Of a stretch of DNA of 64,000 bases, positions 1-57,915 are shown piece by piece (position 1 is the stretch's first letter; the number at the start of each line of letters is the position of its first letter). Location: the IMG/VR virus record IMGVR_UViG_3300045988_115849, one strand, 5' to 3'. The notes under the pieces were generated by a model. The model had not been told where the DNA came from. It ran no database searches and was given only the letters and a program-made list of their open reading frames with translations. Source of the stretch: a virus. The position numbers and the translations under genes were made by a program.

Positions 1-2
1 AT

Positions 3-98
3 ACATCAGAAAAGATTCAAGGCGATACATCTGATCAGACAGGAAACTCGCCGATATTAGATGGATTGAATACAGACTCAAATAAGATTCAGGCATAA
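3..98 (+). CDS. 3' end of an upstream structural gene cut by the window edge (probably portal)
   Basis: Frame is open from the window edge to TAA 96-98 (..GDTSDQTGNSPILDGLNTDSNKIQA*). It lies directly upstream of the head-morphogenesis gene. The portal call is positional inference only. Confidence 0.35.
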   Translation, partial: TSEKIQGDTSDQTGNSPILDGLNTDSNKIQA

Positions 99-110
99 CA
101 GGAGAGAGAA

Positions 111-746: not shown

Positions 747-853
747 TCACAGAGAAGTGACGTTAATAAAACACGGTTGCTTAGAGAAAAGCAGAAAATA
801 AAACACAAATTTGATTGAGAGAGAACTCATAAAAACACAGGAAGGAATTTTAT

Positions 854-1498: not shown

Positions 1499-1513
1499 GA
1501 AAGGAGACGTATC

Positions 1514-1903
1514 ATGGCAAGAGGAGATATGAAAGTAGATGTTCTTTCAGTTTCTAATGAAGTTGAAATTTTAAACAGAAAAGAATTTGAAGCAATTCCA
1601 AATACAGTAGACTTTGATGGTGTAGAAACCAAAGACGATTTAGGTAGAAAAGTTGTAAAAGCCGGTACTCCAATTGGAAAAGATGGAGCACCAATTAAAG
1701 CTACACCTTGGACTGGCGCTGTTGGAATTTTACTTCATGATGCTTATGAAACAAGACCGCAGCAGGCAGTTTTAAAGAAAGCATATGTAAATACGACAAG
1801 AGCACAGAAAAATTCTGGATTAACATATGATCTTGCATTAGTTACAGAGTTAGAAAAGTCTGGATGCAGAATCGTATTAGAAGAACCAGAAGTCTTAGCA
1901 TAA
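1514..1903 (+). CDS. Putative head decoration protein (lambda D-like position)
   Basis: 129 aa between scaffold and major capsid. SD GAAAGGAG. Motif VKAGTPIG..AVGILLHDA is reminiscent of decoration proteins. The call rests mainly on position. Confidence 0.45.
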   Translation: MARGDMKVDVLSVSNEVEILNRKEFEAIPNTVDFDGVETKDDLGRKVVKAGTPIGKDGAPIKATPWTGAVGILLHDAYETRPQQAVLKKAYVNTTRAQKNSGLTYDLALVTELEKSGCRIVLEEPEVLA

Positions 1904-1910
1904 GACAAAT

Positions 1911-1970
1911 ACCGGTTATTAGAAAAGATAGATAATCGCTAACCCTCAATAGTTACAGGGTAGAAAGGAG
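1911..1970 (+). promoter_or_regulatory. Conserved late-gene leader, copy 1 (two hairpins plus SD) upstream of the major capsid gene
   Basis: Hairpin CGGTTAT (1913-1919) / ATAATCG (1932-1938). Then CTAACCCT..AGGGT hairpin (1942-1946 / 1957-1961) and SD AAAGGAG. Positions 1935-1970 are identical to 5802-5837. Confidence 0.6.
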
Positions 1971-1976
1971 AACAAT

Positions 1977-3047
1977 ATGTTATTAACAGACGTTTTTTCA
2001 GCGGAAGCAGTAGCACTCGCTAGAACTTCTGATGTAAGTAATTCCATGGCATATGCCGGACTTGCTTTTTTCCCAAATAAAAAGAAAACTGGAATTGACC
2101 TGAAATGGATCAAAACACATAAAGGTCTTGGAGTTGCATTAAAACCATCTGCATTTGATGGTATGGCAACAATCCGTGCAAGAAAAGGATTCAAAGTGAC
2201 AAATGAAGAAATGCCACTTTTTCGTGAATCTATGGTTGTAAAAGAACAGGATTTAGCAGAGATCACAAGAGCTCAGGAATCCAATGATCCATACCTTAAT
2301 GAAGTTTTATCTCATATCTATGATGATACAAACGAGTTAATTGATGGTGCTGATATTGCAGCCGAACGCATGAGAATGCAGTTACTTGCACCAGTAGGCG
2401 GAGATATGAAAATTGTAATCGGTACAGCTGACAATGTAGCTTACAATTACAGTTATGATCCGAACGGCGATTGGAAAGCAAAACATTATGCATCTTTAGA
2501 AGGGACAAGCACATGGGATAAAGCGGATACATCCAAACCATTAAACGATATTCAGAAGGGTATTGATTACCTGACAAGTATCGGTGTCTCACCTATGTAT
2601 GCAATGATGACTTCAAAAACATTTAACTATCTGATTGAAAACTCTCAGATCAAAAATGCTATTATTACAATTTCTGGAAGAACAATTGATTTTGTATCTA
2701 AACAAGTTGTAAAAGAAGTGTTCCAGTCTCAGACAGGACTTATCCCAATTTTATACGATAAGAAGTTTGAGGACTATGACGGTAAAGATAAGAGCTTCTA
2801 TCCTGATGATTATGTAACAATCATCGGTGAAGGACAGCTTGGTAATACATGGTATGGAGTGACACCAGAGGAAAGAACATTACTTGGTGATCCTAGTGTA
2901 GATGTAAGTGTCCTTGATGATACAGGAGTTGCAATTGCTGTTAAATCTGAATACGGACCACCAGTATCTTATTCAACTACTGCTTCTCAGATTGTTCTCC
3001 CATCTTTTGAAGGCATGGACAGCATTTATGTTATGAAAGTAAAATAG
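1977..3047 (+). CDS. Major capsid protein (lambda gpE-like family)
   Basis: 356 aa with a strong SD. Sequence features (..SPMYAMMTSKTFNYLIENSQIKNAI.., C-terminal ..SIYVMKVK) resemble Phage_cap_E-type capsid proteins. Canonical position. Confidence 0.85.
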   Translation: MLLTDVFSAEAVALARTSDVSNSMAYAGLAFFPNKKKTGIDLKWIKTHKGLGVALKPSAFDGMATIRARKGFKVTNEEMPLFRESMVVKEQDLAEITRAQESNDPYLNEVLSHIYDDTNELIDGADIAAERMRMQLLAPVGGDMKIVIGTADNVAYNYSYDPNGDWKAKHYASLEGTSTWDKADTSKPLNDIQKGIDYLTSIGVSPMYAMMTSKTFNYLIENSQIKNAIITISGRTIDFVSKQVVKEVFQSQTGLIPILYDKKFEDYDGKDKSFYPDDYVTIIGEGQLGNTWYGVTPEERTLLGDPSVDVSVLDDTGVAIAVKSEYGPPVSYSTTASQIVLPSFEGMDSIYVMKVK

Positions 3048-3060
3048 GAGAAGTTGTATT

Positions 3061-3249
3061 ATGATTTATGATCATGTAGTAAATAAAAATGGTGTGTATT
3101 ATGCAGCTGGTGATGAGGTTCCGGAGGATAATGTTTCCACGGAACCTTCTGTAGAAGAATCTGTAAAAGAACAGGAAGTTCCTGTAAAAAGTGAAGAATC
3201 TACAGAAGAACCAGAAAAACCAAAAAGAGGAAGATCGCCGAAGAAATAA
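3061..3249 (+). CDS. Small acidic protein, unknown function
   Basis: 62 aa, SD TAGGAG, Glu/Pro/Ser-rich tail ending in a basic KPKRGRSPKK. Confidence 0.5.
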   Translation: MIYDHVVNKNGVYYAAGDEVPEDNVSTEPSVEESVKEQEVPVKSEESTEEPEKPKRGRSPKK

Positions 3250-3264
3250 AATGAGGTAAAAGAA

Positions 3265-3609
3265 ATGACAGAGGAAATATTGAATGAATTAATTGAATAT
3301 GCCGGAGATGATTATGAAGCAAATCAACAGTCATTTCTAAACTCATTGATTGAAGATGCAATAGAAGAAGTATGCTGTGCAATGTATCCCGGTGGATATG
3401 CTTCTGATAAAGAGTTTGAAAAACAGAAACAATCAGCTGTGAAACGATACAAAGGAAAAATAAAAAGGATAGCACAGTATCATTATGATAAACAAGGAAA
3501 AGAAGGCGTAGTCAGTTATTCAGAAAGCAGTACATCAGCTTCTTATGAAAATTCTGGAACACCTTCTAGTTATTTGAGAGGTATTATACCTGAATCAAAA
3601 ATTATCTAA
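3265..3609 (+). CDS. Head-tail connector protein (gp6-like)
   Basis: 114 aa. N-terminal ..LIEYAGDDYE..FLNSLIEDAIEEV.. resembles phage gp6-like head-tail connector proteins. Position is after the capsid gene. Confidence 0.55.
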   Translation: MTEEILNELIEYAGDDYEANQQSFLNSLIEDAIEEVCCAMYPGGYASDKEFEKQKQSAVKRYKGKIKRIAQYHYDKQGKEGVVSYSESSTSASYENSGTPSSYLRGIIPESKII

Positions 3610-3716
3610 GACGGTGCGTGATGTTTGAAAAGACCTCCTATTATACATCGCAGGGAGTGCTTAAGAAGGTGGTGGGGAAAGCACATTTTATGGAGGTTAT
3701 ATTAAATTGGAAATAA

Positions 3717-3751
3717 ACAGGACTTTTCTATTTTGCGAAGTCCTGTTTTTT
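3717..3751 (+). terminator. Intrinsic terminator inside the head-tail module
   Basis: Stem ACAGGACTT (3717-3725) / AAGTCCTGT (3738-3746) followed by a T-run. Confidence 0.65.
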
Positions 3752-3771
3752 ATGCCAGAAGGGAGTCTTCA

Positions 3772-4086
3772 TTGGATAGCGAACACTTTGTTGAAACAAA
3801 TACATTCGATGAGTTCAAAAGAAGAATTGAAGATGAAGATCATCGACAAAACAGACGAATAGAAGAGCTAGAAAAATTGGCAGAAGAAATACACACGCTT
3901 GCTAAAACATCGGCAGTTATGTGTGAAAAATTAATAAACATGAATGATAAGCTTGATACAGTAAACAAAGATGTTGAATCACTGAAATCAAAAGATGGTG
4001 AAACGTGGCGAAGAGTTGTATGGACAGTTATTGCTGCAATCTTAGGTATCGTTGTTGGATTCATATTTAAAGAAATAGGAATGTAG
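3772..4086 (+). CDS. XhlA-like membrane protein (coiled coil plus C-terminal TM)
   Basis: TTG start at 3772 after SD AAGGGAG. The tracked start 3733 lies inside the terminator hairpin. Coiled-coil-like segment (RRIEELEKLAEEIHTL..DVESLKSKDGETW) followed by the TM helix VVWTVIAAILGIVVGFIF, the layout of the XhlA family. Confidence 0.55.
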   Translation: MDSEHFVETNTFDEFKRRIEDEDHRQNRRIEELEKLAEEIHTLAKTSAVMCEKLINMNDKLDTVNKDVESLKSKDGETWRRVVWTVIAAILGIVVGFIFKEIGM

Positions 4087-4097
4087 GTGATTGTAAT

Positions 4098-4499
4098 ATG
4101 CGATCAAGGCAAAGAGACAAGCAAAATATATGGTTTTCGAAAATTTCAGAAAATCATGATGATATAGATACTGTCATTACTTATGAAAAGCCGATCATGA
4201 AAAAAATGACCGTATCATCTACAAGTGGTACTGCGGAAGAAATATCAGCGGGTATTGTTCCGAACTATGATCGCTATATTACAAGTTATGACAGATCGTT
4301 TTGCGATTATGCAGAAGAAGGTGTCGTATGTTGGGTGGATTCAGAACCAGAATTTAATCAAGATGGGTCATTGAGAATGGAAGATGATGAAATAACGCCA
4401 GTGACAATGCCAGATTATAAGATTTTGAAAATAATTGACACAAAAAAAGGAAATATCGCAAGGTATGGAATTAGCAAAATCAAAGGAGTGTATCAATGA
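4098..4499 (+). CDS. Putative head-tail joining / head closure protein
   Basis: 133 aa, SD present, position between connector and tail-completion genes. No diagnostic motif recognised. Confidence 0.4.
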   Translation: MRSRQRDKQNIWFSKISENHDDIDTVITYEKPIMKKMTVSSTSGTAEEISAGIVPNYDRYITSYDRSFCDYAEEGVVCWVDSEPEFNQDGSLRMEDDEITPVTMPDYKILKIIDTKKGNIARYGISKIKGVYQ

Positions 4500-5005
4500 G
4501 AATCAATATTGAGCTGAGTCAAAAAAGTATTCAATCAGCAATAAAGCAAATTGAAAATTGCAGAGATAAGCTTATTAGAAAAAACAGAGAATTTGTAAAG
4601 CGACTCGGAGAAGTTGGTATTCCTGTTATAGATTCTAATATAGCTGTTGCGGCGGGCGATTCAGACAAAACACATGATGCTTATATCAAAATCAATTCTT
4701 TTGGAGATTATGCACAAGCAACTTTGATCGTAAGTGGTAAGGATTTACTATTTATAGAGTTTGGTGCCGGTGTGCATTACAACGGAGCTGTTGGTAGCAG
4801 CCCTCATCCGTTGGGAGCATCAAAAGGATACACGATCGGTTCTTATGGAAAAGGCAATGGAAGTAAAGATGCTTGGTATTATTACGCTGATACAGGAGAA
4901 ATTGTAAAGTCGCAAGGTACACAAGCAACAATGCCAGTGTATAAAGCCGGCGTAGAAATGCGACAGCAGATGTTAAAGATAGCAAAGGAAGTATTTTCTT
5001 CTTAG
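4496..5005 (+). CDS. HK97 gp10-like tail component
   Basis: 169 aa. ATGA start/stop overlap with the upstream gene. The central FIEFGAGVHY motif resembles the HK97 gp10 family. Confidence 0.5.
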   Translation: MRINIELSQKSIQSAIKQIENCRDKLIRKNREFVKRLGEVGIPVIDSNIAVAAGDSDKTHDAYIKINSFGDYAQATLIVSGKDLLFIEFGAGVHYNGAVGSSPHPLGASKGYTIGSYGKGNGSKDAWYYYADTGEIVKSQGTQATMPVYKAGVEMRQQMLKIAKEVFSS

Positions 5006-5020
5006 AAAGGAAAGATTCAT

Positions 5021-5425
5021 ATGCCTGATACAGTAAAAAATCCAGTGTCCGATGTATATAAGCGTTGGAGTGCAGAAGTTAAAAAGGTTGTGGGTGATGG
5101 AAATTATTCATTCGAAAGAAGTCAAACTCTTGCAGCTAACAAAAAGATGTATGCGCAAATGTTTCTTATGGGTAATCCTGGGACACGTTGGGATATAGAA
5201 GGTGACGAAGTAGCTACAATCCCAAGTTTTCAAATTGATTGTTTTGCAACAGGAACAAAAAGTGTTGAAAAGGTATATCAGATTGACGATGCAAGTCACA
5301 GAGCAATGGTATCTATGGGATTTCAACGAACATATGGACCAGAACAGCAAGATAACACAGACAATAGTATAAAGCGTGTTGTAAGTCGTTATAGCAGAAT
5401 CTACACAGGTAATTTGTTGGAGTAA
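5021..5425 (+). CDS. Putative tail completion / tail terminator protein
   Basis: 134 aa, SD AAAGGAAAG, immediately upstream of the tail-tube region. Positional call. Confidence 0.35.
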   Translation: MPDTVKNPVSDVYKRWSAEVKKVVGDGNYSFERSQTLAANKKMYAQMFLMGNPGTRWDIEGDEVATIPSFQIDCFATGTKSVEKVYQIDDASHRAMVSMGFQRTYGPEQQDNTDNSIKRVVSRYSRIYTGNLLE

Positions 5426-5427
5426 AC

Positions 5428-5754
5428 ATGAATCTTATCTATTCAAAGAATGAATTTAACATATATAAATCAAATGATGATGGGTACATAGTGCATAACA
5501 CAAAAAAGAAATTTGCTGATGGTCATTCACACATCAGAACTTTTAATCAATCAAGATATATCGTTGAAATGGTTACACATAAAAGAGTACCTAACCATTT
5601 ATCAATATATTTGCTCACAAGCCTGATAAGAATTTCTAATGATGAGATTTATCAGGAAAAGATACAGGGATTAATTGATTCAAAGAAAAATAGAGGTCAA
5701 CGATTTTATACGAACAATATGAAAAATAAATATAAGTTTCAGAGAAATAGTTAA
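5428..5754 (+). CDS. Basic hypothetical protein (moron-like insert before the tail tube gene)
   Basis: 108 aa, SD GGAG. His-rich patch (IVHNTKKKFADGHSHIR) and a basic tail. No structural-protein character. Confidence 0.5.
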   Translation: MNLIYSKNEFNIYKSNDDGYIVHNTKKKFADGHSHIRTFNQSRYIVEMVTHKRVPNHLSIYLLTSLIRISNDEIYQEKIQGLIDSKKNRGQRFYTNNMKNKYKFQRNS

Positions 5755-5781
5755 TAACAGATATTTCTGTTTAGATATTAA

Positions 5782-5837
5782 ACCGGTCATGAAAAATCAT
5801 GATCGCTAACCCTCAATAGTTACAGGGTAGAAAGGAG
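5782..5837 (+). promoter_or_regulatory. Conserved late-gene leader, copy 2, upstream of the major tail gene
   Basis: Hairpin CGGTCATGA (5784-5792) / TCATGATCG (5797-5805) with an AAAA loop. Positions 5802-5837 are identical to 1935-1970. Confidence 0.6.
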
Positions 5838-5844
5838 TTTGATT

Positions 5845-6330
5845 ATGAGTGGTGTAGCCGGAATAAGTACAGTCGGTGTAAAAGTTGGATATGCAGTAGA
5901 AACTACAGCAGGAACAAAACCGGCAAAATTTAAACAGCTTCATCGTATCAATGCCACGGATGATATTGGAATTGATACAGAGACAATCGATGCATCAGCA
6001 TTAGAAGATGAAGTTGATAAAGAGATTGCAGGTAGAGGGTCAACAGGTGGAACATTTAATGTCACTGTCAACTTAACGAACGAGACAGTTAAAGAATGGG
6101 AAACTTTGATCAGTGAATACAAAACAGGAAAAGCAGCAGGAAAAGCCGTATGGTATGAAGAATATTACCCGGCACTTGATAAGGCATATTTCACAAAGAT
6201 TGAGCCACCAGCACAGTTACCTAAGCCGGGGCTTGATCAGAATGGATTAGCAACCGTTGAAATGACATTGACAATCAACGAGTATGTCGGTCTTGATACC
6301 GCAGTAGAACCAGACGATACAGAAGTGTAA
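5845..6330 (+). CDS. Major tail (tube) protein
   Basis: ATG at 5845 lies 7 nt after SD AAAGGAG. N-terminal ..GISTVGVKVGYAVETTAGTKPAKFKQL..IDASALED.. resembles TP901-1/phi13-type major tail proteins. Followed by chaperones and the tape measure. Confidence 0.8.
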   Translation: MSGVAGISTVGVKVGYAVETTAGTKPAKFKQLHRINATDDIGIDTETIDASALEDEVDKEIAGRGSTGGTFNVTVNLTNETVKEWETLISEYKTGKAAGKAVWYEEYYPALDKAYFTKIEPPAQLPKPGLDQNGLATVEMTLTINEYVGLDTAVEPDDTEV

Positions 6331-6352
6331 TTTGAATGAATAGGAGGCAAAC

Positions 6353-6832
6353 ATGTATAAAGTATTAAAAATTGGTGGAAAAGATTATAAGCTTGAATAC
6401 ACAGTTGAAGCATCATTATATGACGATTGTGTATCAAGCGTAACTTCATTGATGGTAGGAATCAGTGAATCAGAAGATAAAAATGATATTAAGAAGCTCG
6501 TAAAAGAAATTTCCAATATTCCAAAGACAACATTAATAATCTTTTATGCAGGGCTTCTTGAAGCACATGGACCAGAGGGAGATGGAACAGTTTCTGATCT
6601 TAAAGATGCAAAATCTCTTATTAGAACATATCTTGAAGAACATAAAGATGATGAAGATGGAAATTTCTATGGGATCATGACTCTTTGTATTGAAAAGATG
6701 GGCGAAGATAATTTTTTCGATCTAATCGGTCTGAACAAGATGTTAGGGATCGAACCAGAACAGAAGAAAGAACCAAAGAAACCTCAGGATCACAAAAAGA
6801 AAACAGCGAAAGCAGAAGTTACAGAGAAATAA
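6353..6832 (+). CDS. Tail assembly chaperone (gpG-like)
   Basis: 159 aa, acidic with a Lys-rich tail. Canonical position before the tape measure. The downstream ORF is open in the -1 frame. Confidence 0.75.
   Translation: MYKVLKIGGKDYKLEYTVEASLYDDCVSSVTSLMVGISESEDKNDIKKLVKEISNIPKTTLIIFYAGLLEAHGPEGDGTVSDLKDAKSLIRTYLEEHKDDEDGNFYGIMTLCIEKMGEDNFFDLIGLNKMLGIEPEQKKEPKKPQDHKKKTAKAEVTEK
6712..6718 (+). promoter_or_regulatory. Candidate -1 programmed frameshift heptamer T_TTT_TTC
   Basis: In the zero frame of 6353..6832 the codons are AAT TTT TTC. The -1 frame has a TAA at 6709-6711 and is then open from 6712 through 7197. Confidence 0.55.
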
Positions 6833-6843
6833 TACTTGATACA

Positions 6844-7197
6844 TTGTTTCCTCAGGCTGTAAAAGCCGGAATGACAAAAGATGAATTTTTTCACTCCACT
6901 CCAAAAGAAATTGGTGTATACATAAATGCATACAAAGAACAGAAAGAATATGAATTGAAAAGTACAAATTATCAATCATGGTTAACAGGTTCTTATGTGT
7001 TGCAAGCGATTAATTGTGCTTTTTCTAAAAATGGGAATTATCCAGAAAACCCATTGCTAAAAGAAGAAAAAAGTATTGAATCAATTGAAAAGAGAAGTGG
7101 AAGAAGTAAAGAAGAAATGCAACAAGAATTAAGACTTATGGAACTCAGAGTTATGCAAGCAAATGCAAATATAGAAAAGATAGGGGCAGACGAATGA
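6844..7197 (+). CDS. Tail assembly chaperone frameshift extension (gpT-like), probably made only as a G-T fusion
   Basis: Lies in the -1 frame relative to 6353..6832, with no convincing own SD or ATG. ..MTKDEFFHSTPKEIGVYINAYKEQKEYE.. resembles T-segments of Firmicute siphophages. Confidence 0.7.
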   Translation: MFPQAVKAGMTKDEFFHSTPKEIGVYINAYKEQKEYELKSTNYQSWLTGSYVLQAINCAFSKNGNYPENPLLKEEKSIESIEKRSGRSKEEMQQELRLMELRVMQANANIEKIGADE

Positions 7198-7216
7198 TTC
7201 TGCCCTTTATTTTTTT
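7184..7216 (+). terminator. Intrinsic terminator after the chaperone genes
   Basis: Stem GGGCAGA (7184-7190) / TCTGCCC (7199-7205) followed by TTTATTTTTTT. Confidence 0.65.
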
Positions 7217-7218
7217 AT

Positions 7219-7266
7219 ACCGGCTGACCGTATGAGATCAGCCGCTGACCTTATTAGTTGGAGGTG
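7219..7266 (+). promoter_or_regulatory. Conserved late-gene leader, copy 3, upstream of the tape measure gene
   Basis: Hairpin CGGCTGA (7221-7227) / TCAGCCG (7238-7244). Then CTGACCTT..GAGGT (7248-7252 / 7261-7265), which overlaps SD GGAGGTG. Confidence 0.55.
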
Positions 7267-7273
7267 AATTAAA

Positions 7274-10200
7274 ATGCCAGATAGTACAATAGAAACACTC
7301 GATATACAAGTGAAAAGTTCGACTGCCAGAGCTGTTACAGCACTTGATAATTTGGCAAACAAATTATATGACGTGAGCAAAGCATTTAAGTCCGTAGATA
7401 CTGGAAGTATGAGAAACTATTCTCGTGAGATAGGCAGGGTTTCTTCGTCTTTAAAATCAATGAGTGGTATCAAAATCAATGTACCTAAATTATCTGGTCT
7501 TAGTAAACAGTTACAGTCATTAACAAATGTTAATTTTACCGCCTTAAATGCAAGTTCAAAACCATTAAAAGAATTGGCTTCTGGACTGAATGCTTTAAAA
7601 GGCGTTTCAGGTGTTACGATACCAAAGCTAGATTATAAAAATATCAATTCAGTTTCCAAAGCAATTGAAAAGATAGGAAAATTAGATACTGGAAATATTC
7701 AAAATTCTGTGAATGGAATATCAAAAGTATCTCATGCAATGTCAGTTTTAAATAACGTTGATTTTAGCGACAGCAAAATATCTTCTGTTATTAACTCTAT
7801 CAGAAAATTAATGGCAGTTGATACAAAAGGTTTTGATACGCAGATTTTTGACAGTATTTATAAGTCTGTGTCTAAACTTGGAAATCTTCCGGATGTTTCA
7901 TCAAGTATCAATAGACTTGTTGCATCATTAGCTAGATTAATCAGTTCTGGAAATAATACTGGTATAGTTGCAAGTAAGCTTCCGGCGGTAGGAAATGCAA
8001 TAAAGCAAACTGCAAATAAATTAGCATCTGTTAAAGGTGTTGAAGAATCAATAAATCAATTCATATCAGCGTTAGCGAGTCTATCTTCTGCCGGCAAAAA
8101 AGTAGAATTAAGTGCTAACGGACTACAAATAATGGCAAAAGAACTTTTGTCATTTTTCAATACCATGTCTAAAGCACCGGCTGTTAGTAAGAATACAGTA
8201 GAAATGACAAAGGCGTTGGCACAATTAGCAGCATCAGGCGGTAGAGTTAGTAGTGCTGTCAATACAATGAATACTTCTTTCGGAAAATTAAAGAACGGAT
8301 TTTCTGAATTAGCAAGCTTAGCATCCAGAGCTGGGTCTGCTGTAAGTAGTGGTATTGGTAAAATGGTAAATGCTATTCGAAATATTGGGTCAGCAAGTGG
8401 AAGTATTTCAACCGTAAATTTCAGCTTAAAAAATCTTATTCAAACAGCTATTGGATTTAAGGCGGTACAAGCATTTGGACAATTTACAAAGGATGCAATA
8501 ACGTTAGGATCGGATATAACAGAAGCAGAAAACGTAATTGATGTTTCTTTTGGTAAATTAAAATACAAAGCGTATGATTTTGCTTCAACAGCTTCAAAGC
8601 AGTTTGGAGTATCTGAGTTGGCAGCTAAAAGATACACAGGAACCATAATGGCAATGTTGAAGTCATCAGGTGTCGCCCAAAATGCAGCATCCGACATGTC
8701 AGTAGCATTAGCCGGATTAGCGGGTGATATTGCATCTTTTTATAATATAGATACTGATACAGCATTTTATAAAATCAGGGCAGGTATTTCTGGTGAGATT
8801 GAACCATTAAAGCAATTAGGTATTAACATGTCTGTTGCAAATATGAGTGCTTATGCTTTGGCAAACGGAATTACAAAGTCGTGGACTTCTATGACTCAGG
8901 CAGAACAGGCTACATTGAGATATAACTATTTAATGTCTGTAACAAAAGATGCACAGGGCGATTTTGCTCGTACTGCCGGTACTTGGGCAAACCAAGTACG
9001 TTTATTAAAATTAAACATTCAGTCATTATCAGCTGTTATGGGTCAAGGAATTATTGCAGCTGTACTTCCGGCAATTAAAGCATTAAACGCTTTAATGAGC
9101 AGGCTTATGCAAGCAGCTAATATGTTCAGAAACTTTATGTATGTTCTGATGGGAAAAAAGATAAAAGGAGCAACAAAAGGTGTTGTAAATGATCTTGGTG
9201 GAGTTGGCGATTCTGCTACTGATCTTTCAGGACTTGGAAGTGCCGGAAACGATGCATCTAAAGGGATGAACAAAGCATCTAAGGCAGCGAAAGAATTAAA
9301 GAAGACCTTATCCGTTCTGCCGTTTGATGAATTGAATCAGTTGAATGACAATAAGCAATCAAGCGATACTGGATCTGGAGGAGGTGCAGGTGGTTCTGGA
9401 AGTGGCGGTGGAGTCGGCGGTGGAATTGGCGGACTCGGTGATTTGAGTGGTCTTGAAGATGAAGATTATGAAACACCAATTAGTCATTGGGCTTCAAGAA
9501 TCAGAAAAGCATTTCTTGATAATAATTGGTATGGTGTTGGCCGTGAGATCGCAAATATGTTAAATGCCGGTCTGCAATTAGCCTATGATGCACTTGATTG
9601 GAAGAATGTTGGCCCTAAAATCACATCATTTACAACAAAATTTACTCAGGCAATCAATGGATTCCTTGATAATTTCGATTTTAAGTTATTAGGTAAAGTA
9701 GTTGGTGCAGGGATTACGGATGTAGTGAGAGCATTTAATCAAATTGCATCTCCTGATGGTGGTATAAACTTCAAAACTCTAGGTACTGGCATTGCAGAAA
9801 GTTTAAAAGGAATGATTCAGGAAATTCCATGGACAGAGTTAGGAAATGCACTCGGAAACTATTTTATGATCTCATGGAGAATCTTAAACGGATTCTTGAA
9901 TCAATTAGCAGCAACAGATAATACAGGCTTAACAGGATTTCAGCAAATCGGCGTTGCTCTTGGAAAAGCTGTAAATGGTATGTTCCAATCCATCGACTTC
10001 GCAACTATCGCAGATACATTTGCAGTAGGAATCAATGGAGTTTTTTCTATACTTGGAAAAATCAATGAAACTGTACATTGGTCTGATATTGCAGCAAATA
10101 TTTCTCACGGGATTAATACTTTTATCACCGGAGTTAACTGGGAAGAAAATGGACAAATATTAAGCACTTTTGTAAAAAATCTTCTTGGAGTATTTTCACA

Positions 10201-11887
10201 GGTAGCGCAAAATACAGACTGGGCAGGACTTGGAAAAGGCATTGGAACATTCCTAAGTAGTATTGATTGGAGTGGAATATTCGGAGAAGTATTTACAACA
10301 ATCAAAACAATATTAGGTGGACTTATCTCAGGATTAGGAACCACAATCGAAGGAAAGTTTATTATAGCTTTTGGTGCTATTAAACTTGTTACAGCAGTGG
10401 ATAAAATTGTAAGCCCTATACTTTCGGCGTTTGGTTTAATACCTAAAGAAGTAGATGGATCGTCTTCTTTATTAATCATAGCATTAAAGAAAATGGCAGG
10501 AGCTTTTTCAAAATCTACATTAGGTACTGCGATTGGAACGTATGTTTTGGATGCGATTAGCCTTTTAAAAGGCATTCCGGGGAAGATTACAACAGATGTT
10601 GCACCGAAGATCGCGGAAGTTATTTCAACAAAATTATTTCCAAAAGCGGTTTCATTTGCAGGTGGAATTGTATCATGGGTAACAGGTACGTTTGCACCAG
10701 CTGTATCAGCTGCATTTAGCAGTGTTCTTGGCGTGCTGTTCTCACCGATTGGATTAGCTATAGTTGGAGTAATCGTTGGTGGATTTTTAATATACAAAAA
10801 CTGGGGTGCAATATCTAAGTTTATCGGAAACGTAAAAGAGAATATTGTGAATGGATTTAACAGCGCCGGAGAATGGTTAAAGGAAAAAGGGAAAAACCTT
10901 ATTGAAGGCTTGCGCAATGGATGGGAAAGTGCAAAATCTGGTTTCGGAACAGCTGTTAGCACAATCGGCAAATTTATTAAAGAGAAAGTTGGAAACGCCG
11001 GTGAATGGTTGAAAGAAAAAGGGCAGGATGCAGTCGAAGGTATCCGTAGTGGATGGGAGTCTGTAAAAGAAAGCAAAGTCGGTCAGGCAGCCGCAGGTAT
11101 CGGAAATTACATCAAAGGTAAAGTCACTGGTGCTGAGAATTGGTTGGTTGAAAAAGGTAAGCAAGCTGTCAATGGGATGAAAAACGGTTGGGAGAACGTG
11201 AAGAACGGAAACTTCCAATCAACCGTAAAAGGATTAAAGAGTTTTACGGTAAATACATTAGCAAACACATCTCCGGCAGCATGGTTGGTTGCCAAAGGAG
11301 CAGAAGCTATGAAAGGTATGCTTTCTGGATTAAAAGGAGATAAATGGACAGATGCTAGAAACTGGTTGAAAAAGTTACCGAGCAATGTAAAAAATGCCGT
11401 TGGAGATATGTATAAAGTTGGGCAAAATATCATTAAGCAGTTTATTAATGGTTTTAAATCTTTACGTATTCCAACACCTCATATTTCTTGGGGAACAAAA
11501 GACTTTAATTTTGGTGGAATGAGCTTAAGCATACCAACTAAATTTAAAGTAGATTGGTATAAAAAAGGTGGATTATTTGATTCTGCATCCGTGATCGGTG
11601 TCGGTGAAGCCGGATCAGAAGCTGTATTACCACTTGAAAATCCAAAAACTATGAAGATGATCGCAGATAGTATCGTTGGTAATTCCGGCGGTATGGTTGA
11701 TGAAAGTATCATTGCTGATGCTGTAGAACGTGGAGTAGTTGTTGCTATGATGAACAATAGCGGAAATCAACCAGATATAAACTTATACGCAACATTATAT
11801 ACAGAAGATAACGAAGTTCTTGCAAGGTCTGTTGCAAAAGGACAAGCAAGAAATAATTACAGATTAAAACCATCAAGTGCATATTGA
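7274..11887 (+). CDS. Tape measure protein
   Basis: 1537 aa, helical and Ala/Ser/Gly-rich. Contains a Gly-rich linker (SGGGAGGSGSGGGVGGGIGG), hydrophobic segments and C-terminal tandem repeats. Canonical position. Confidence 0.95.
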   Translation: MPDSTIETLDIQVKSSTARAVTALDNLANKLYDVSKAFKSVDTGSMRNYSREIGRVSSSLKSMSGIKINVPKLSGLSKQLQSLTNVNFTALNASSKPLKELASGLNALKGVSGVTIPKLDYKNINSVSKAIEKIGKLDTGNIQNSVNGISKVSHAMSVLNNVDFSDSKISSVINSIRKLMAVDTKGFDTQIFDSIYKSVSKLGNLPDVSSSINRLVASLARLISSGNNTGIVASKLPAVGNAIKQTANKLASVKGVEESINQFISALASLSSAGKKVELSANGLQIMAKELLSFFNTMSKAPAVSKNTVEMTKALAQLAASGGRVSSAVNTMNTSFGKLKNGFSELASLASRAGSAVSSGIGKMVNAIRNIGSASGSISTVNFSLKNLIQTAIGFKAVQAFGQFTKDAITLGSDITEAENVIDVSFGKLKYKAYDFASTASKQFGVSELAAKRYTGTIMAMLKSSGVAQNAASDMSVALAGLAGDIASFYNIDTDTAFYKIRAGISGEIEPLKQLGINMSVANMSAYALANGITKSWTSMTQAEQATLRYNYLMSVTKDAQGDFARTAGTWANQVRLLKLNIQSLSAVMGQGIIAAVLPAIKALNALMSRLMQAANMFRNFMYVLMGKKIKGATKGVVNDLGGVGDSATDLSGLGSAGNDASKGMNKASKAAKELKKTLSVLPFDELNQLNDNKQSSDTGSGGGAGGSGSGGGVGGGIGGLGDLSGLEDEDYETPISHWASRIRKAFLDNNWYGVGREIANMLNAGLQLAYDALDWKNVGPKITSFTTKFTQAINGFLDNFDFKLLGKVVGAGITDVVRAFNQIASPDGGINFKTLGTGIAESLKGMIQEIPWTELGNALGNYFMISWRILNGFLNQLAATDNTGLTGFQQIGVALGKAVNGMFQSIDFATIADTFAVGINGVFSILGKINETVHWSDIAANISHGINTFITGVNWEENGQILSTFVKNLLGVFSQVAQNTDWAGLGKGIGTFLSSIDWSGIFGEVFTTIKTILGGLISGLGTTIEGKFIIAFGAIKLVTAVDKIVSPILSAFGLIPKEVDGSSSLLIIALKKMAGAFSKSTLGTAIGTYVLDAISLLKGIPGKITTDVAPKIAEVISTKLFPKAVSFAGGIVSWVTGTFAPAVSAAFSSVLGVLFSPIGLAIVGVIVGGFLIYKNWGAISKFIGNVKENIVNGFNSAGEWLKEKGKNLIEGLRNGWESAKSGFGTAVSTIGKFIKEKVGNAGEWLKEKGQDAVEGIRSGWESVKESKVGQAAAGIGNYIKGKVTGAENWLVEKGKQAVNGMKNGWENVKNGNFQSTVKGLKSFTVNTLANTSPAAWLVAKGAEAMKGMLSGLKGDKWTDARNWLKKLPSNVKNAVGDMYKVGQNIIKQFINGFKSLRIPTPHISWGTKDFNFGGMSLSIPTKFKVDWYKKGGLFDSASVIGVGEAGSEAVLPLENPKTMKMIADSIVGNSGGMVDESIIADAVERGVVVAMMNNSGNQPDINLYATLYTEDNEVLARSVAKGQARNNYRLKPSSAY

Positions 11888-11926
11888 TTTGTGTAAAACT
11901 TTATGCTATGATGAATTTAAGTTAAG

Positions 11927-11986
11927 AGACATACACAGGATGCAAAGGTCATGAAGACCACACAATCCTGTGTATGTCTTTTTTTA
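11927..11986 (+). terminator. Intrinsic terminator after the tape measure gene
   Basis: 14-bp stem AGACATACACAGGA (11927-11940) / TCCTGTGTATGTCT (11966-11979) followed by a T-run. Confidence 0.75.
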
Positions 11987-11997
11987 TTTTAATAATT

Positions 11998-12067
11998 ACA
12001 GCAAACTAGCCATCGTGTGCCGGCGAAAAGAACGTCTTTCCTCGTGTACGTTCCGTTTGCTGTTTTT
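11998..12067 (+). terminator. Second terminator-like long stem-loop, part of the island leader
   Basis: Outer stem ACAGCAAAC (11998-12006) / GTTTGCTGT (12055-12063) plus a T-run. Inner hairpin GAACGT (12030-12035) / ACGTTC (12048-12053). Confidence 0.5.
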
Positions 12068-12122
12068 ATATTTTAACATGAGGGTGCACACGTTAATGTT
12101 CAAATAACCACGAGGTGATAAT

Positions 12123-13151
12123 ATGAGTAAGAAATTAGATTTATTTTTCAAAAGTAACGTATTAGTAATCAATCCTGATCTTGCAAAAATGATTGGCTTA
12201 AATGAAGCAATCGTTCTGAATCAAATCTATTATTGGATTTCCGTAAATAAAAAACAGAACAGAAATTTCCACGATGGTAAATATTGGTGCTATAACTCTA
12301 TCAGAGAGTGGCAGGAAGAAAATTTTCCGTTTTGGTCACATAAGACCGTTGAGCGTATTTTTTATAGTTTACGCAACAAGGGTCTTGTTTTAGTGGGAAA
12401 TTATAACAATCGTCGTAATGGTTCTACATCTACAAAGTGGTATACAGTAAACGATGAGGTTTTAGAAGAAATCATTGATCAGATTTTAGACGAACCAGAA
12501 TCAGACCATACAGTTAGACAGAATAACTTTGAAAGCGACAACTTGACCGAAGCATTACCAGAGACTAACACAGATATTAACAATGCTTTATCTAACGATA
12601 AAGATTATGCTTTTTTATCAACAGAAGATAAAGATAATAATGATGTGTGTAGAGATAAAAAAGACTTCATGCCTATTTCTGGGAGAAATAAGGTCAAAAT
12701 CATAAAGAGAAAGGGAAATAAAACTACTCTTAGTCAGACAATTGAAGATAAAATCCATTTAGGTTTTAGAGTCAATCAAGAGTTTGACGATGATTTGTAT
12801 AACAATTCAAAAGATGAATGTGTAATCGGAGATATTGTTAAATACTTTTTCAAAAAATATCAGTTGGAGAAAGGAACAGACCATCCAATGATCTCTGACG
12901 AAAAATGCGTAGAGTTGGTTGAGAAGTTTTATTTTGTTCCTGAGAATATGCAAGACACAGAACTGGATTTTGATTTATACAAACTTATGATTGATAAATA
13001 CTTTGCAACAGAATATGGCAAAAATAGCGGATTCACAATTAATTACCAGATCATGCACTTTATGAATTATAAAATCCGTGAAAATCTATTCTACAAAGTT
13101 CAGGATGAATACTATGACAATGTTAAGAGTGATTATCCTGTTGAGATATAG
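12123..13151 (+). CDS. Winged-helix DNA-binding protein (replication-initiator/DnaD-like N-terminus), accessory
   Basis: 342 aa, SD GAGGTG. N-terminal ..AIVLNQIYYWISVNKK..GKYWCYNSIREWQEENFPFWSHKTVERIFYSLRNKGLV.. resembles wHTH domains of plasmid/phage replication organizers. The location inside the tail module is atypical. Confidence 0.55.
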   Translation: MSKKLDLFFKSNVLVINPDLAKMIGLNEAIVLNQIYYWISVNKKQNRNFHDGKYWCYNSIREWQEENFPFWSHKTVERIFYSLRNKGLVLVGNYNNRRNGSTSTKWYTVNDEVLEEIIDQILDEPESDHTVRQNNFESDNLTEALPETNTDINNALSNDKDYAFLSTEDKDNNDVCRDKKDFMPISGRNKVKIIKRKGNKTTLSQTIEDKIHLGFRVNQEFDDDLYNNSKDECVIGDIVKYFFKKYQLEKGTDHPMISDEKCVELVEKFYFVPENMQDTELDFDLYKLMIDKYFATEYGKNSGFTINYQIMHFMNYKIRENLFYKVQDEYYDNVKSDYPVEI

Positions 13152-13178
13152 AATCATCAAAGAAAAGGAGAAGAAAAG

Positions 13179-13733
13179 ATGAAAAATACAACATGGAAAA
13201 TACCATTGATTGTTCTAGCTGCGATTGTAGCAATAGCGTTAGTTGGCATATTTATGATTCACATACCACAGAATCATGCAAATTCGATGGAAGAACAGAT
13301 AATGGAATCAAAGGCGGCAATTAACGTTCAGGAAAAGAGAAGACAGGATTTAGTGTATAATCTGGCAGACAGTGTGAAATCTTACAACAAACATGAAGCC
13401 GAAACACTGAAAAATATTGTTAAAGAGAGAAGTTCAAATACCGGGAAAATTGAAAGTACAGGTACAGCGATTGCAGCAATAAAAGAATCTTATCCAGAAT
13501 TAAAAGCTGACAAGAATTATCAACGGCTTATGAAAGAATTAGCAGTTACAGAGAATAAGATTTCTGACGTAAGAGACAATTACAATCAGCAGATCAAAGA
13601 ATACAACAGATATGTCGTGAACTTTCCAGTGAACTTTTTCTTGAAACTGTTAGGATACAAACAGAAAACATATCAATATTTAAAATTTGAGGATGCAACA
13701 GAGACAGCACCGCAGAATTTATTTAGTGAGTAG
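13179..13733 (+). CDS. lemA: LemA family membrane protein
   Basis: 184 aa. N-terminal TM (IPLIVLAAIVAIALVGIFMI), then ..AAINVQEKRRQDLVYNLADSVKSYNKHEAETLKNIVKERS.., matching the LemA family signature. Confidence 0.85.
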   Translation: MKNTTWKIPLIVLAAIVAIALVGIFMIHIPQNHANSMEEQIMESKAAINVQEKRRQDLVYNLADSVKSYNKHEAETLKNIVKERSSNTGKIESTGTAIAAIKESYPELKADKNYQRLMKELAVTENKISDVRDNYNQQIKEYNRYVVNFPVNFFLKLLGYKQKTYQYLKFEDATETAPQNLFSE

Positions 13734-13736
13734 CCT

Positions 13737-14489
13737 ATGAGAAAATTCAAAGGATTTCAGTTTGATACTTTTGAAATAACTCCACGAGAGATTATAGCAA
13801 GCGTTGTTATTGTTGGATTAATGTTTCTGATTGGCTTTACTATCAGTGGGAAAATTGATAATTACATCATGGATCAGAACGAAGAATATAATCGTGCTGC
13901 AAAAATTGAAAGCAATGATCTTTTTCAGTATGGGATGGAAACAGACTTGGGCAATGCATTTGTTTATGGGAAGATAGAGCCGGTTGATACAGTTACATAC
14001 AAAGAAATTGGTGGTAAGTATTATTATATCAGGAAGATCAGAGAAGAATATCGCAGACATGAAAAAACCGAAAGAGTTAAAGACAGCAAAGGAAAAGTTC
14101 ATTACAAAAAGAAAGTCTGGTATTCATGGGATGATGTATGGAGAGAAAGTAGGACTTGTAAAAAGATTAAATTTGCAGGCAAGAAATTCAAGGAAGATAA
14201 GATTAACTTCATGGGAGGTCATTATCTAAAAAGAATTTATCATACTTCTCGTGTCAGGTATGAATACTATGGTATGGAAGCAAAGCCCGTTAAGGGAACT
14301 GTTTACACAAAGCTAAAAAATAATACTATGACAAGCTGTGATTTGAATAAGTCAAATCTAAAAGACACAGTTGAATCATACAAAACAAGTGGTGGAGTTT
14401 GTAAAATTCTGTTTTGGGTATTCTGGATCACTGGGACAGGGTTAGCGGTGTTCGGATTTTATTATTTGGATAATCATTGGTTAGAGTAG
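13737..14489 (+). CDS. Two-TM membrane protein with a central beta-rich domain (GIDE-like layout)
   Basis: 250 aa. TM near the N-terminus (IIASVVIVGLMFLIGFTISG) and near the C-terminus (ILFWVFWITGTGLAVFGFYYL). The basic central domain and LemA adjacency recall bacterial LemA/GIDE-domain gene pairs. Family membership is unverified. Confidence 0.5.
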   Translation: MRKFKGFQFDTFEITPREIIASVVIVGLMFLIGFTISGKIDNYIMDQNEEYNRAAKIESNDLFQYGMETDLGNAFVYGKIEPVDTVTYKEIGGKYYYIRKIREEYRRHEKTERVKDSKGKVHYKKKVWYSWDDVWRESRTCKKIKFAGKKFKEDKINFMGGHYLKRIYHTSRVRYEYYGMEAKPVKGTVYTKLKNNTMTSCDLNKSNLKDTVESYKTSGGVCKILFWVFWITGTGLAVFGFYYLDNHWLE

Positions 14490-14500
14490 GAGGATATGAT

Positions 14501-14716
14501 ATGATCAAAAAAATTAGAAAAAATAAATTAGCTGTATCAATTATTGCAGTAATCTTGGGAATGATCATAGTTTTTGCGGTCAATTTTGGAATTGTCAATT
14601 TTGTTTTGTGGTTGCTACAGTTTATTGTTGCAAAGCCTTTGGTTGTGACATTAAAAGGAAAAGCAGCAGCTACTGTATTGTTAACACTTGTTGTACATAT
14701 TTTTAGCCGCAAATAA
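14501..14716 (+). CDS. Small multi-TM membrane protein
   Basis: ATG at 14501 lies 7 nt after SD AGGAGG. 71 aa, almost entirely hydrophobic (..LAVSIIAVILGMIIVFAVNFGIVNFVLWLLQFIV..). Confidence 0.5.
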   Translation: MIKKIRKNKLAVSIIAVILGMIIVFAVNFGIVNFVLWLLQFIVAKPLVVTLKGKAAATVLLTLVVHIFSRK

Positions 14717-14770
14717 GACCACATGATACACAATAAGACCAAAGAGTATTGTATAATATAAAATTATAAA

Positions 14771-14798
14771 ACGTCTATCGAGAACGATAGGCGTTTTT
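14771..14798 (+). terminator. Intrinsic terminator closing the accessory island
   Basis: Stem ACGTCTATCG (14771-14780) / CGATAGGCGT (14785-14794) with one G-U pair, then TTTTT. Confidence 0.7.
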
Positions 14799-14806
14799 GC
14801 AGTTTA

Positions 14807-14858
14807 TACGGTCAATAAAAGCGAAAATTGATCGCTAACCTTAAATAGTTGGAGGTGG
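14807..14858 (+). promoter_or_regulatory. Conserved late-gene leader, copy 4, upstream of the distal tail genes
   Basis: Hairpin CGGTCAAT (14809-14816) / ATTGATCG (14827-14834). Then CTAACCTT..GAGGT (14838-14842 / 14852-14856), which overlaps SD GGAGGTGG. Confidence 0.55.
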
Positions 14859-14865
14859 ATTTTTT

Positions 14866-15228
14866 ATGGCAGAACACATGATAGAAGTTAATGGTAAAGT
14901 AATGCCATGTCCAGCTTCTTATGAATGGTCATTGCAAGATGTATCAGCATCGGATTCAGGAAGAACAGATGATGCATTGATGCATAAAAATAGAAAAGCA
15001 CAGAAAAGAAAGTTGGCATTGAAATGGAATGCTAAAACACCAGATGTTACTTCTGAAATATTGAAAGCCTTTAATCCAGAATATGTAAAAGTAAGATATT
15101 GGGACATGATGGCAAATAAATATCAGACAAGAACATTTTACACAGGGGACAGAAAAGCACCTGTGAAATGGTGGATAAAAAATAAAAAAATTATAGAGAG
15201 TGTTTCTTTTGACATAATAGAGAGGTAA
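14866..15228 (+). CDS. Small tail component in the distal tail protein (Dit) position
   Basis: 120 aa, strong SD, between the tape measure region and the tail tip gene. Positional call. Confidence 0.4.
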   Translation: MAEHMIEVNGKVMPCPASYEWSLQDVSASDSGRTDDALMHKNRKAQKRKLALKWNAKTPDVTSEILKAFNPEYVKVRYWDMMANKYQTRTFYTGDRKAPVKWWIKNKKIIESVSFDIIER

Positions 15229-15231
15229 ATT

Positions 15232-39639: not shown

Positions 39640-39655
39640 AAGGAGAATAACAAAC

Positions 39656-54141: not shown

Positions 54142-54142
54142 A

Positions 54143-57889: not shown

Positions 57890-57915
57890 AAACAACCACT
57901 CCTTCCTTTTGATAA

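Follow-up and report, generated by a model that had tools for sequence, protein, structure and literature searches.

The nut sites of phage lambda (boxA/boxB) and the put sites of HK022 are cis-acting elements of the nascent RNA, which combine hairpins with a conserved linear block, occur more than once per genome and lie upstream of terminators; put RNA modifies RNA polymerase in cis without the help of a factor. In phage Mu, the Com protein activates translation of mom by binding a hairpin located just 5' of a structure that occludes the Shine-Dalgarno sequence (SD) and start codon of this late gene. In Cluster K mycobacteriophages, the SAS/ESAS motif is found in multiple copies just upstream of some start codons, and a binding partner encoded by host or phage has been proposed for it; SAS comprises a 13-bp sequence, GGGATAGGAGCCC, at a distance of 3-8 bp to the start codon, to which a 17-bp inverted repeat of conserved sequence may be added (PMC3203893). 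More recently, 10,006 unnamed candidate structured RNAs were reported from IMG/VR, including 64-86-nt candidates from Blautia, Ruminococcus and Lachnospiraceae phages for which small-RNA data from the gut show high expression (Fremin et al., 2023; PMC10690425). Here we examine an RNA module of approximately 52 nt, consisting of two hairpins (H1 and H2), which recurs four times in a 64-kb stretch of DNA from IMG/VR virus record IMGVR_UViG_3300045988_115849 (the whole stretch is referred to as the window). We conclude that the module is a real, widespread and functionally undescribed family of structured RNAs in many phages of Lachnospiraceae gut bacteria. Its kind, a cis-regulatory leader RNA, is known, and its fold, distribution and presumed partner are new. 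Based on sequence, we tentatively favour a role in which the module would be recognised by a trans-acting factor and would gate translation or termination at the start of each late-gene cassette.

The original prediction had found no named motif in these hairpins, and our searches agree. Rfam 15 gave no match to the window at gathering thresholds and none overlapping the four copies at E <= 10, while seven related loci matched only tRNAs and a tandem array of the module from a relative gave only a chance match at 15 bits. A literature search found no description of the element. The module may be among the candidates of Fremin et al., which derive from the same source data and hosts; the two are set side by side by description only, and no analysis of structure and function, gene association or terminator coupling is described for those candidates (PMC10690425). 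The Minerva UG27 non-coding RNA arrays were also considered and represent a different system.

To search the window, we used a covariance model (R1) built from the four window copies and seven divergent relatives (11 diverse copies). Over all 64 kb and with filters off, R1 matched exactly four places, at 49.7-60.0 bits (E-values of 4e-12 to 4.5e-15), all on the plus strand, and the runner-up scored 10.9 bits, which indicates that the four matches are far beyond chance. These matches are the copies that the original prediction had placed upstream of late genes, each ending at a ribosome-binding site (Table 1). The stems also have the sequences described there: H1 is CGGTTAT(T)/(G)ATAATCG in copy 1, CGGTCATGA/TCATGATCG in copy 2, CGGCTGA/TCAGCCG in copy 3 and CGGTCAAT/ATTGATCG in copy 4, and a G-C third pair distinguishes copy 3 from the other three copies, which have G-T there. 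The arms of H2 are ACCCT/AGGGT in copies 1 and 2 and ACCTT/GAGGT in copies 3 and 4. The first two copies share an identical 36-nt block (1935-1970 and 5802-5837), and a 34-mer from this block has two exact matches where none is expected. The short core CGCTRACCYT alone is not significant, with 10 matches at up to one mismatch compared with 4.7 expected; it is the complete element that is distinctive.

We compared 142 distinct motif sequences gathered from IMG/VR phages, prophages of Lachnospiraceae and Clostridia, and human-gut metagenomes. From 5' to 3', the module consists of the flank A-C, H1, the linker C-U-R, H2 and the flank A-G. H1 has 7-9 bp of free sequence on a fixed base of C-G, G-C and G·U and a loop of 4-11 nt (consensus AAAUGGA), and H2 has a base of (A-U), C-G and C-G below two inner pairs of free sequence, which close a loop of 9-10 nt (N-A-A-N-A-R-U-U-R). 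In alignments fitted to the model, which favours structure, 47 distinct IMG/VR sequences showed pairing in 95.2% of cells and two-sided changes in 10 of 13 pairs (113 cells), with a covariation score of 0.567 compared with 0.185 after shuffling (reached in 0 of 500) and no more than 0.09 (0.089) with the partners slid; an independent metagenome set of 68 distinct sequences showed 91.4% pairing and a score of 0.401 compared with 0.129. The size of the effect remains considerable despite that bias, and sequences retrieved by a simple stem search, with no alignment, display these stems as well. Across all 142 sequences, H1 pairs 1-7 were paired in 98.6-100%, with up to six pair types per position and compensatory double changes in 6 of 8 H1 pairs. 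Pair 1 switches from C-G to U-A 11 times, pair 3 is G·U in 122 sequences, A-U in 12 and G-C in 6, and pairs 4-8 display 4-6 pair types each; the inner two pairs of H2 covary as well (U-A, G-C, U-G, A-U and C-G). A covariance-model search of related phages and prophages thus recovers homologues with covariation, which upholds the original proposal that conservation of pairing rather than sequence points to an RNA element. Furthermore, the conserved G·U pair, which can form on the sense strand only, would be an A·C mismatch on the opposite strand, which indicates that the folded species is the sense RNA. Many further G·U pairs occur in H2 and in the terminator helix of the class III variant described below.

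These data bear on whether the element is a selfish or recombinogenic intergenic repeat, or a DNA-level promoter or operator site, that lacks function at the RNA level. Such an origin would account for the identical 36-nt block in copies 1 and 2, for the H1 sequence that is often identical among copies of one genome, which suggests gene conversion, and for the location of the element at mosaic module boundaries. However, compensatory covariation runs deep across the 142 sequences, the G·U pairs would become mismatches on the other strand, and the orientation strictly follows that of the genes, which together make this explanation highly improbable. A promoter, whether sigma-70-type or activator-dependent, was considered specifically because the original prediction had listed a late-promoter signal among its options, and this part of the prediction is not supported. 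The other roles listed there, a translational gate, an antitermination signal and a processing or stabiliser structure, are weighed below. The distance between the conserved CCGG and CGCU blocks varies from about 20 to 27 nt with the length of the H1 loop, which excludes a bipartite promoter; the stems covary and contain G·U pairs; and the SD of class I copies lies inside the element, where a transcript started downstream would lose it. Consistent with this rejection, a promoter scan found no site at any of the four window copies. An antisense partner was rejected as well: the one exact reverse complement, AGGGTTAGCG at 14438-14447, falls within coding sequence without the surroundings of the motif, and chance alone would produce it.

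Approximately 25 near-invariant bases lie in the H2 loop and at the junction, where they comprise A-C 5' of H1, the base CGG/UCG, CUR and ACC...GGY; the 3' A-G is near-invariant as well. Such conservation of junction and H2-loop sequence is characteristic of recognition surfaces, and a simple hairpin would not require it. When mutual information was computed over 91 sequences with their flanks, no partners emerged beyond those of H1 and H2, which led us to reject tertiary pairs between the 5' flank and the H2 loop, kissing between the H1 and H2 loops and an enclosing P0 helix. The P0-like pairing of copy 2 and an alternative fold of copy 4 are not conserved, and an alternative UAAC/GUUA pairing within H2 fails, by inspection, in variants with a CUC linker. 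A compact conserved core of about 50 nt that is intergenic in long operons and sometimes in tandem might also be a small self-cleaving ribozyme, or another self-processing RNA, that cuts the late transcript between cassettes, and clostridial prophage operons do carry arrays of hammerhead and twister ribozymes. The loop AAAUAGUU is reminiscent of a linker of the pistol ribozyme; the core and pseudoknot of pistol were not found. We consider self-cleavage very unlikely, as no Rfam ribozyme family matched even at E <= 10, the two helices are accompanied by no pseudoknot and no loop-to-flank or tertiary covariation, and the module is without the multi-helix junction or internal loop of known small ribozymes.

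To describe the distribution of the module, we scanned IMG/VR for an exact pattern, which yielded 107 stretches, and searched with the capsid protein, which yielded three clades with 99%, approximately 57% and approximately 50% identity. In the clades with 99% and 50% identity, each locus has 3-4 copies by R1, invariably oriented with the genes. It detected no copies in the clade with approximately 57% identity, in which the capsid gene is preceded by a plain TAA-AAAAAGGAGG. The element is therefore dispensable in this sister clade with plain SDs, which suggests that it is an accessory regulatory layer and not part of the basic gene structure. This clade (L123-L171) consists of phages of approximately 88 kb that have the orthologous capsid gene and an Ltr-like gene and lack the module, and it provides a natural comparison set for a co-occurring factor. 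Across phages with only about 50% protein identity, the module marks the same cassette starts (TerL, the large terminase; capsid; tube; tape measure; and tail tip), and such a multi-copy distribution at cassette starts in phage late regions is unusual. In a scan of one genome per species, true matches were almost only from Lachnospiraceae and other Clostridia, and bacterial carriers include Blautia producta DSM 2950, Lachnospira, Acetatifactor and Ruminococcus. A metagenome scan with one sub-type gave at least 120 stretches, and the named contigs among the matches listed are human-gut assemblies. In total, the module was found in about 30 bacterial genome assemblies, dozens of IMG/VR contigs and at least 120 metagenome stretches. 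In B. producta DSM 2950 and in a Lachnoclostridium assembly, three copies stand in tandem, about 66 nt apart, before the major tail gene, as would be expected for multiple binding sites. Upstream of the tandem arrays at L240 and L205 there is a terminator, together with a conserved leader approximately 100 nt long.

Each terminal copy is followed by a start codon, and the genes so marked encode the large terminase, major capsid, major tail, tape measure and large tail/host-specificity proteins, along with a few unknowns. Usually the module begins 0-10 nt past the upstream stop codon or right after the U-tract of a terminator. From 97 contexts, we defined three classes that differ in how the module adjoins the SD. 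In class II, which includes window copies 1 and 2, H2 is followed by UAG and the SD AAAGGAG, and the genes downstream encode capsid, tube and some tape-measure proteins. In class I, which includes window copies 3 and 4, the SD is itself the 3' arm of H2, as the original prediction had noted for GGAGGT, and the genes downstream encode tape-measure and tail-tip proteins. In class III, which is found in relatives, H1 and H2 lead directly into GGCAGAG..., the 5' arm of a third hairpin (H3), whose 3' arm (CUCUGC or CUUCUGC) also lies within the 5' arm of an 11-14-bp terminator hairpin. The 3' arm of this terminator, GYGGAGGUGYC, contains the SD and is followed by a run of 5-7 U and then the start codon. 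Pairing in the 11-bp terminator helix amounts to 97%; wobble changes are numerous there, and a double change occurs once. In 90 further class III sequences H3 has 5-8 bp and the outer terminator pairs show exchanges of G-C to A-U.

In the minimum-energy fold of class III computed with RNAfold, H1 and H2 are accompanied by a 13-14-bp terminator that holds the SD (z of -2.8 to -3.7), which suggests that transcription and translation alike are OFF by default. With GCAGAGG, the 5' arm of H3 imitates the arm on the SD side, GCGGAGG, and the other arm of H3 doubles as part of the terminator's 5' arm, which suggests that H3 acts as both antiterminator and anti-sequestor. A riboswitch-like arrangement, in which an antiterminator next to a sensor excludes a helix that terminates transcription and sequesters the SD, is thus present in class III relatives only and not in the window copies. 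Class III is found mostly before TerL and also before tape measure, downstream of many unrelated genes; only about 3-45 nt separate the upstream stop codon from the motif, which indicates that transcription must enter from upstream and meet the gate.

The coupling to terminators raises processive antitermination of the lambda nut or HK022 put type, in which the nascent module, alone or with a small phage protein, would modify RNA polymerase to read through the terminators within the late region, and successive copies would reload the modification. The recurrence of the module in an operon of more than 25 kb, in which strong terminators are found internally, would suit this mechanism, as would class III modules that directly precede a terminator where the late genes are entered, which leaves a promoter little space, and elements that are in tandem or without an adjacent open reading frame (ORF). 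Two hairpins with a short linker also resemble put RNA. In phage SPP1, late clusters are delimited by terminators and no late promoters were found (PMC6316719). However, read-through by itself would not free the class III SD from its 13-14-bp helix, the first terminator of window-type phages, before TerL, precedes every module, and the tight relation to the SD, including the conserved UAG-AAAGGAG, would not be needed. The features of nut are also absent, as the CG of CGCU is paired and the H2 loop has 9-10 nt. For these reasons, we consider antitermination of this type unlikely.

In roughly one of four contexts, the module directly follows an intrinsic terminator, which suggests that cassettes tend to run from module to terminator. 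Copies 3 and 4 of the window are among these contexts, as originally predicted. The hairpin 7182-7207 with its T-run folds at -14.1 kcal/mol (z = -4.2), closes the tube/chaperone block and has copy 3 directly 3'; the hairpin before copy 4 folds at -16.1 kcal/mol (z = -6.0), ends an insert containing a LemA gene and has copy 4 directly 3'. Both hairpins, like the 3' hairpin of class III, have the stable G+C-containing stem and U-tract of an intrinsic terminator. An extended -10-like sequence, TGTATAAT, is located at 14750-14757, upstream of the hairpin before copy 4.

Such contexts could also reflect a passive boundary between cassettes, with no dedicated factor. In this scenario, an RNase Y-type cut would fall in the AU-rich stretch 5' of H1, the upstream terminator hairpin would guard the 3' end of the upstream fragment, and H1 and H2 would block RNase J and insulate the SD, which would give each cassette its own mRNA stability and translation rate. 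Stem-loops and SD-like stabilisers at 5' ends are established in Firmicutes, as with ermC, aprE, the cryIIIA STAB-SD and phage SP82. The highly expressed short RNAs that Fremin et al. report from Blautia and Ruminococcus phages, one of which may be this element, would also agree with a stabiliser. The location of the module 0-10 nt past a stop codon or right after a terminator's U-tract fits this scenario, as does the finding that the most abundant proteins, capsid and tube, have class II modules with an open SD and that the tube gene can carry three modules in tandem. However, a stabiliser needs structure only, which leaves the near-invariant bases of the junction and H2 loop unexplained, and the competition between H3 and a terminator that buries the SD in class III points to a switch. 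We therefore regard a passive boundary as rather unlikely.

Several findings suggest that the module is a recognised regulatory RNA and more than a simple hairpin: its stems show covariation, sequence is conserved at the junction and in the loop, classes I and II bring it into contact with the SD, and class III couples it to mutually exclusive antiterminator and terminator helices, the latter of which buries the SD. The existence of the terminator-coupled variant in relatives in particular moves weight toward a regulatory gate. In the mechanism that we tentatively favour, the folded module would be recognised by a trans-acting factor, encoded by phage or host and more likely a protein than a small ligand, and binding would set the state of the adjoining expression platform; structure, covariation, strand, positions, host range and the coupling to terminators and SDs are what we show, and the existence of this factor, its kind and whether its binding turns expression ON or OFF are what we infer. 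In the window, the platform would be the ribosome-binding site, either 3 nt after H2 (copies 1 and 2) or formed by the 3' arm of H2 (copies 3 and 4). In relatives, it would be H3, which would oppose both the terminator and sequestration of the SD in a leader that folds OFF by default. Overall, this would amount to coordinated control, after initiation, of entry into each late cassette. It is possible, though doubtful, that a metabolite or a phage or host factor binds the two-hairpin RNA and turns a default-OFF leader ON, such that late timing would occur through antitermination at the RNA level, in place of or in addition to promoter activation of the Ltr type. The gene context, which comprises structural genes only, gives no hint of a ligand.

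Several observations weigh against a factor-recognised gate. Pfam and PHROG scans of approximately 65 window ORFs revealed no recognisable RNA-binding protein or domain as the trans factor. In relatives, the gene with an Ltr-like Sigma70_r4/DUF1492 domain, located between those encoding TerL and portal, was rejected as the factor, as the clade that lacks the motif has it too and its family consists of late activators that bind DNA (PMC3753634). Without extra assumptions, control does not run in one coherent direction, since binding to class I would hide the SD, while binding to class III could protect H3 or clamp its base and expose the SD. The upstream members of tandem arrays adjoin no SD, and the terminators located upstream of the module are beyond its influence. 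H3 is 94% paired and shows one-sided (wobble) changes only, with no double compensation. Finally, some class III elements are followed by no ORF and instead by a promoter-like sequence and tRNA genes.

Other candidates for the factor were considered and set aside. Zinc-ribbon ORFs upstream of TerL match below threshold (Cys_rich_KTR) and are inconsistently present, and the phrog_850 'RNA-binding protein' is found only in the window-type group of relatives. A sequence neighbouring the phrog_850 gene, considered as Y-RNA-like, is an ordinary tRNA-Arg. The sequence GGA is present in many H1 loops, which brings CsrA to mind, but it is missing from the window copies and from many others.

With respect to the systems described above, the module would work most like the protein- or ligand-controlled leaders of Firmicutes, or like phage nut and put sites. 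The attenuator and translational leaders of Firmicutes (ANTAR targets, the RAT sites of LicT/SacY, PyrR sites and small riboswitches) likewise place a short sensor directly 5' of the platform, and the class III antiterminator likewise competes with an intrinsic terminator, which here also sequesters the SD. ANTAR targets share two adjacent hairpins with the module; however, the AxxGxx hexaloop is absent here, where the H2 loop has 9-10 nt and the H1 loop 4-11 nt, and the terminator of class III overlaps the separate H3 and not H2, whereas in ANTAR targets the 3' half of the second hairpin overlaps the 5' arm of the terminator. The module also differs from these leaders in its up to four dispersed copies and its tandem arrays within one phage late region, and in the lack of an Rfam match. 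Like nut and put, it comprises cis-acting hairpins and a conserved block at the starts of phage transcription units, in more than one copy per genome. Lambda nut has a single-stranded boxA (CGCUCUUUA-like) and a boxB with a 5-nt GNRA-like loop, which the module does not resemble; here, the CG of CGCU is taken up in the two pairs at the base of H1 (100% and 99% paired), as is ACC in the base of H2. The copies described here also lie in the late structural region, abut SDs and occur in Gram-positive hosts, and no N-like protein was identified. Set against HK022 put, in which two stem-loops of the nascent RNA lie upstream of the terminators that they suppress, the module gives a mixed picture: it has two stem-loops, and in class III a terminator follows it directly, but in window copies 3 and 4 a terminator directly precedes it.

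The closest phenomenological analogue, and no more than an analogy, is SAS/ESAS, with its inverted repeat, variable spacer and conserved SD-containing block (PMC3203893). In contrast to the module, the arms of that repeat are conserved in sequence and do not covary, the motif is located in the non-structural half of the genome, its sequence and host phylum are unrelated, and no terminator-coupled variant has been described (PMC3203893). Mu Com/mom involves a single site and one gene, whereas the module is multi-copy, and the zinc-ribbon ORFs upstream of TerL, with their sub-threshold matches and inconsistent presence, are poor candidates for a Com-like protein.

Table 1. Coordinates of the module, its parts and adjoining features in the window and in related loci.
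Feature	Sequence	Position	Strand	Remarks
Copy 1, class II	window	1908-1963	+	R1 60.0 bits; both hairpins in fold
Copy 1 H1	window	1913-1920 with 1931-1938	+	linker CUA 1939-1941
Copy 1 H2	window	1942-1946 with 1957-1961	+	
Copy 1 SD	window	1964-1970	+	AAAGGAG; starts 3 nt after H2; start codon 1977
Major capsid (major head) protein gene	window	1977-3047	+	after copy 1; phrog_29, E = 1.3e-51
Copy 2, class II	window	5779-5830	+	R1 59.1 bits
Copy 2 H1	window	5784-5792 with 5797-5805	+	
Copy 2 H2	window	5809-5813 with 5824-5828	+	
Copy 2 SD	window	5831-5837	+	begins 3 nt past H2; ATG 5845
Major tail (tube)-like gene	window	5845-6330	+	after copy 2; 161 aa; weak phrog_158/290 matches
Intrinsic terminator	window	7182-7216	+	upstream of copy 3; 9-bp G+C-rich stem and T-run
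Copy 3, class I	window	7216-7267	+	R1 49.7 bits
Copy 3 H1	window	7221-7227 with 7238-7244	+	third pair G-C
Copy 3 H2	window	7248-7252 with 7261-7265	+	
Copy 3 SD	window	7260-7265	+	GGAGGU; is the H2 3' arm; ATG 7274
Tape measure protein gene	window	7274-11887	+	after copy 3; phrog_1535, E = 4e-92, and other tape-measure families
Terminator-type hairpin	window	14768-14798	+	upstream of copy 4; 13 bp including A/U extension, then UUUUU
Copy 4, class I	window	14804-14858	+	R1 58.1 bits
Copy 4 H1	window	14809-14816 with 14827-14834	+	
Copy 4 H2	window	14838-14842 with 14851-14855	+	
Copy 4 SD	window	14850-14855	+	GGAGGU; is the H2 3' arm; ATG 14866
First genes of tail-tip block	window	14866-18678	+	after copy 4
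DUF6711/phrog_1194 protein	window	14866-15228	+	120 aa
Tail protein	window	15232-18678	+	1148 aa
Tandem triple modules	L240	5478-5662	-	Blautia producta DSM 2950, NZ_CP039126
Tandem triple modules	L205	1193-1379	-	
ORF-less class III element	L223	1466-1914		also L230, L257, L262, L287, L329; promoter-like TTGACA...TAAAT and two tRNA genes 3'

The window represents a temperate siphovirus with approximately 35% G+C, in which head and tail genes occupy 0-25 kb, an endolysin gene lies at about 26 kb and early genes begin at 30.5 kb; an integrase gene (27.2-28.4 kb) and repressor-type genes are on the minus strand. An INPHARED megablast matched no close annotated phage, and the nearest capsid proteins are at most 71% identical (an unannotated faecal phage) and 43% identical (a [Clostridium] innocuum phage). 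The original prediction had named capsid, tail-tube, tape-measure and distal-tail genes downstream of the four copies. Annotation bears out capsid and tape measure, a weak match agrees with a tube-like protein, and the distal-tail label follows from position and not from annotation. The 161-aa tube-like protein is homologous to the products of genes located 3' of the motif in many prophages.

Other features of the window and its relatives are recorded here. Between the tape-measure and tail-tip genes is a moron-like insert (12123-14798) that ends in a terminator of bidirectional type and encodes a DnaD/replication-initiator-like 342-aa ORF, a LemA-family protein (13179-13733), a phrog_3886 protein and a small membrane ORF (14501-14716). 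Among the early genes, 33159-33656 encodes a protein like the C-terminal domain of Spo0A (PF08769, 1.5e-8) and 38359-39639 a 426-aa protein with a PAPS-reductase domain. Two candidate anti-defence genes are located at 39584-40321 and 41292-42092; one has a Tad2-like (Thoeris anti-defence 2) domain (PF11195, 2e-24), and the other has a metallo-beta-lactamase fold with a weak match, below the Pfam cutoff, to anti-Pycsar Apyc1. The early/late junction contains genes for a MazG-domain protein (53443-54141) and a SocA/Panacea antitoxin-domain protein (54092-54580), as well as two HNH endonuclease genes on opposite strands (57104-57895 on the minus strand and 58346-59008). The region directly upstream of the window start corresponds to positions 1-8024 of the IMG/VR relative L115, in which tRNA genes at 1950-2023 and 3661-3736 (tRNA-Arg ACG) flank the gene of a 486-aa DUF2828/DUF7788 protein that PHROGs label 'RNA-binding protein'. 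In L115, the Ltr-like late activator (weak Sigma70_r4/DUF1492) is encoded between TerL and portal and not upstream of terS, and TerL has a hairpin and U7 directly before its ATG and no two-hairpin module. On the 5' side of class III elements of the L223 type is a mini-ORF that resembles a truncated Cys-rich-KTR and ends in CPICGGKTRTKN*.

The ways in which temperate phages of Lachnospiraceae, a family dominant in the human gut, time and balance expression of their late genes are poorly understood. If the module is a factor-controlled switch, it would represent a new RNA-protein or RNA-ligand pair and would provide a mechanism for the puzzle of Firmicutes siphophages whose terminator-bounded late clusters are without visible promoters. 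If a default-OFF leader is turned ON, the module would further represent a Gram-positive counterpart of lambda N/Q logic that is based on RNA structure, with a new RNA fold and a new partner. The covariance model serves as a sensitive marker of late-gene cassette boundaries in gut viromes, and the element is a compact candidate part for the control of gene expression in Clostridia. Because Blautia producta DSM 2950 is a cultivable strain with a prophage that carries the tandem form, the question of how these phages control entry into their late cassettes is directly testable.

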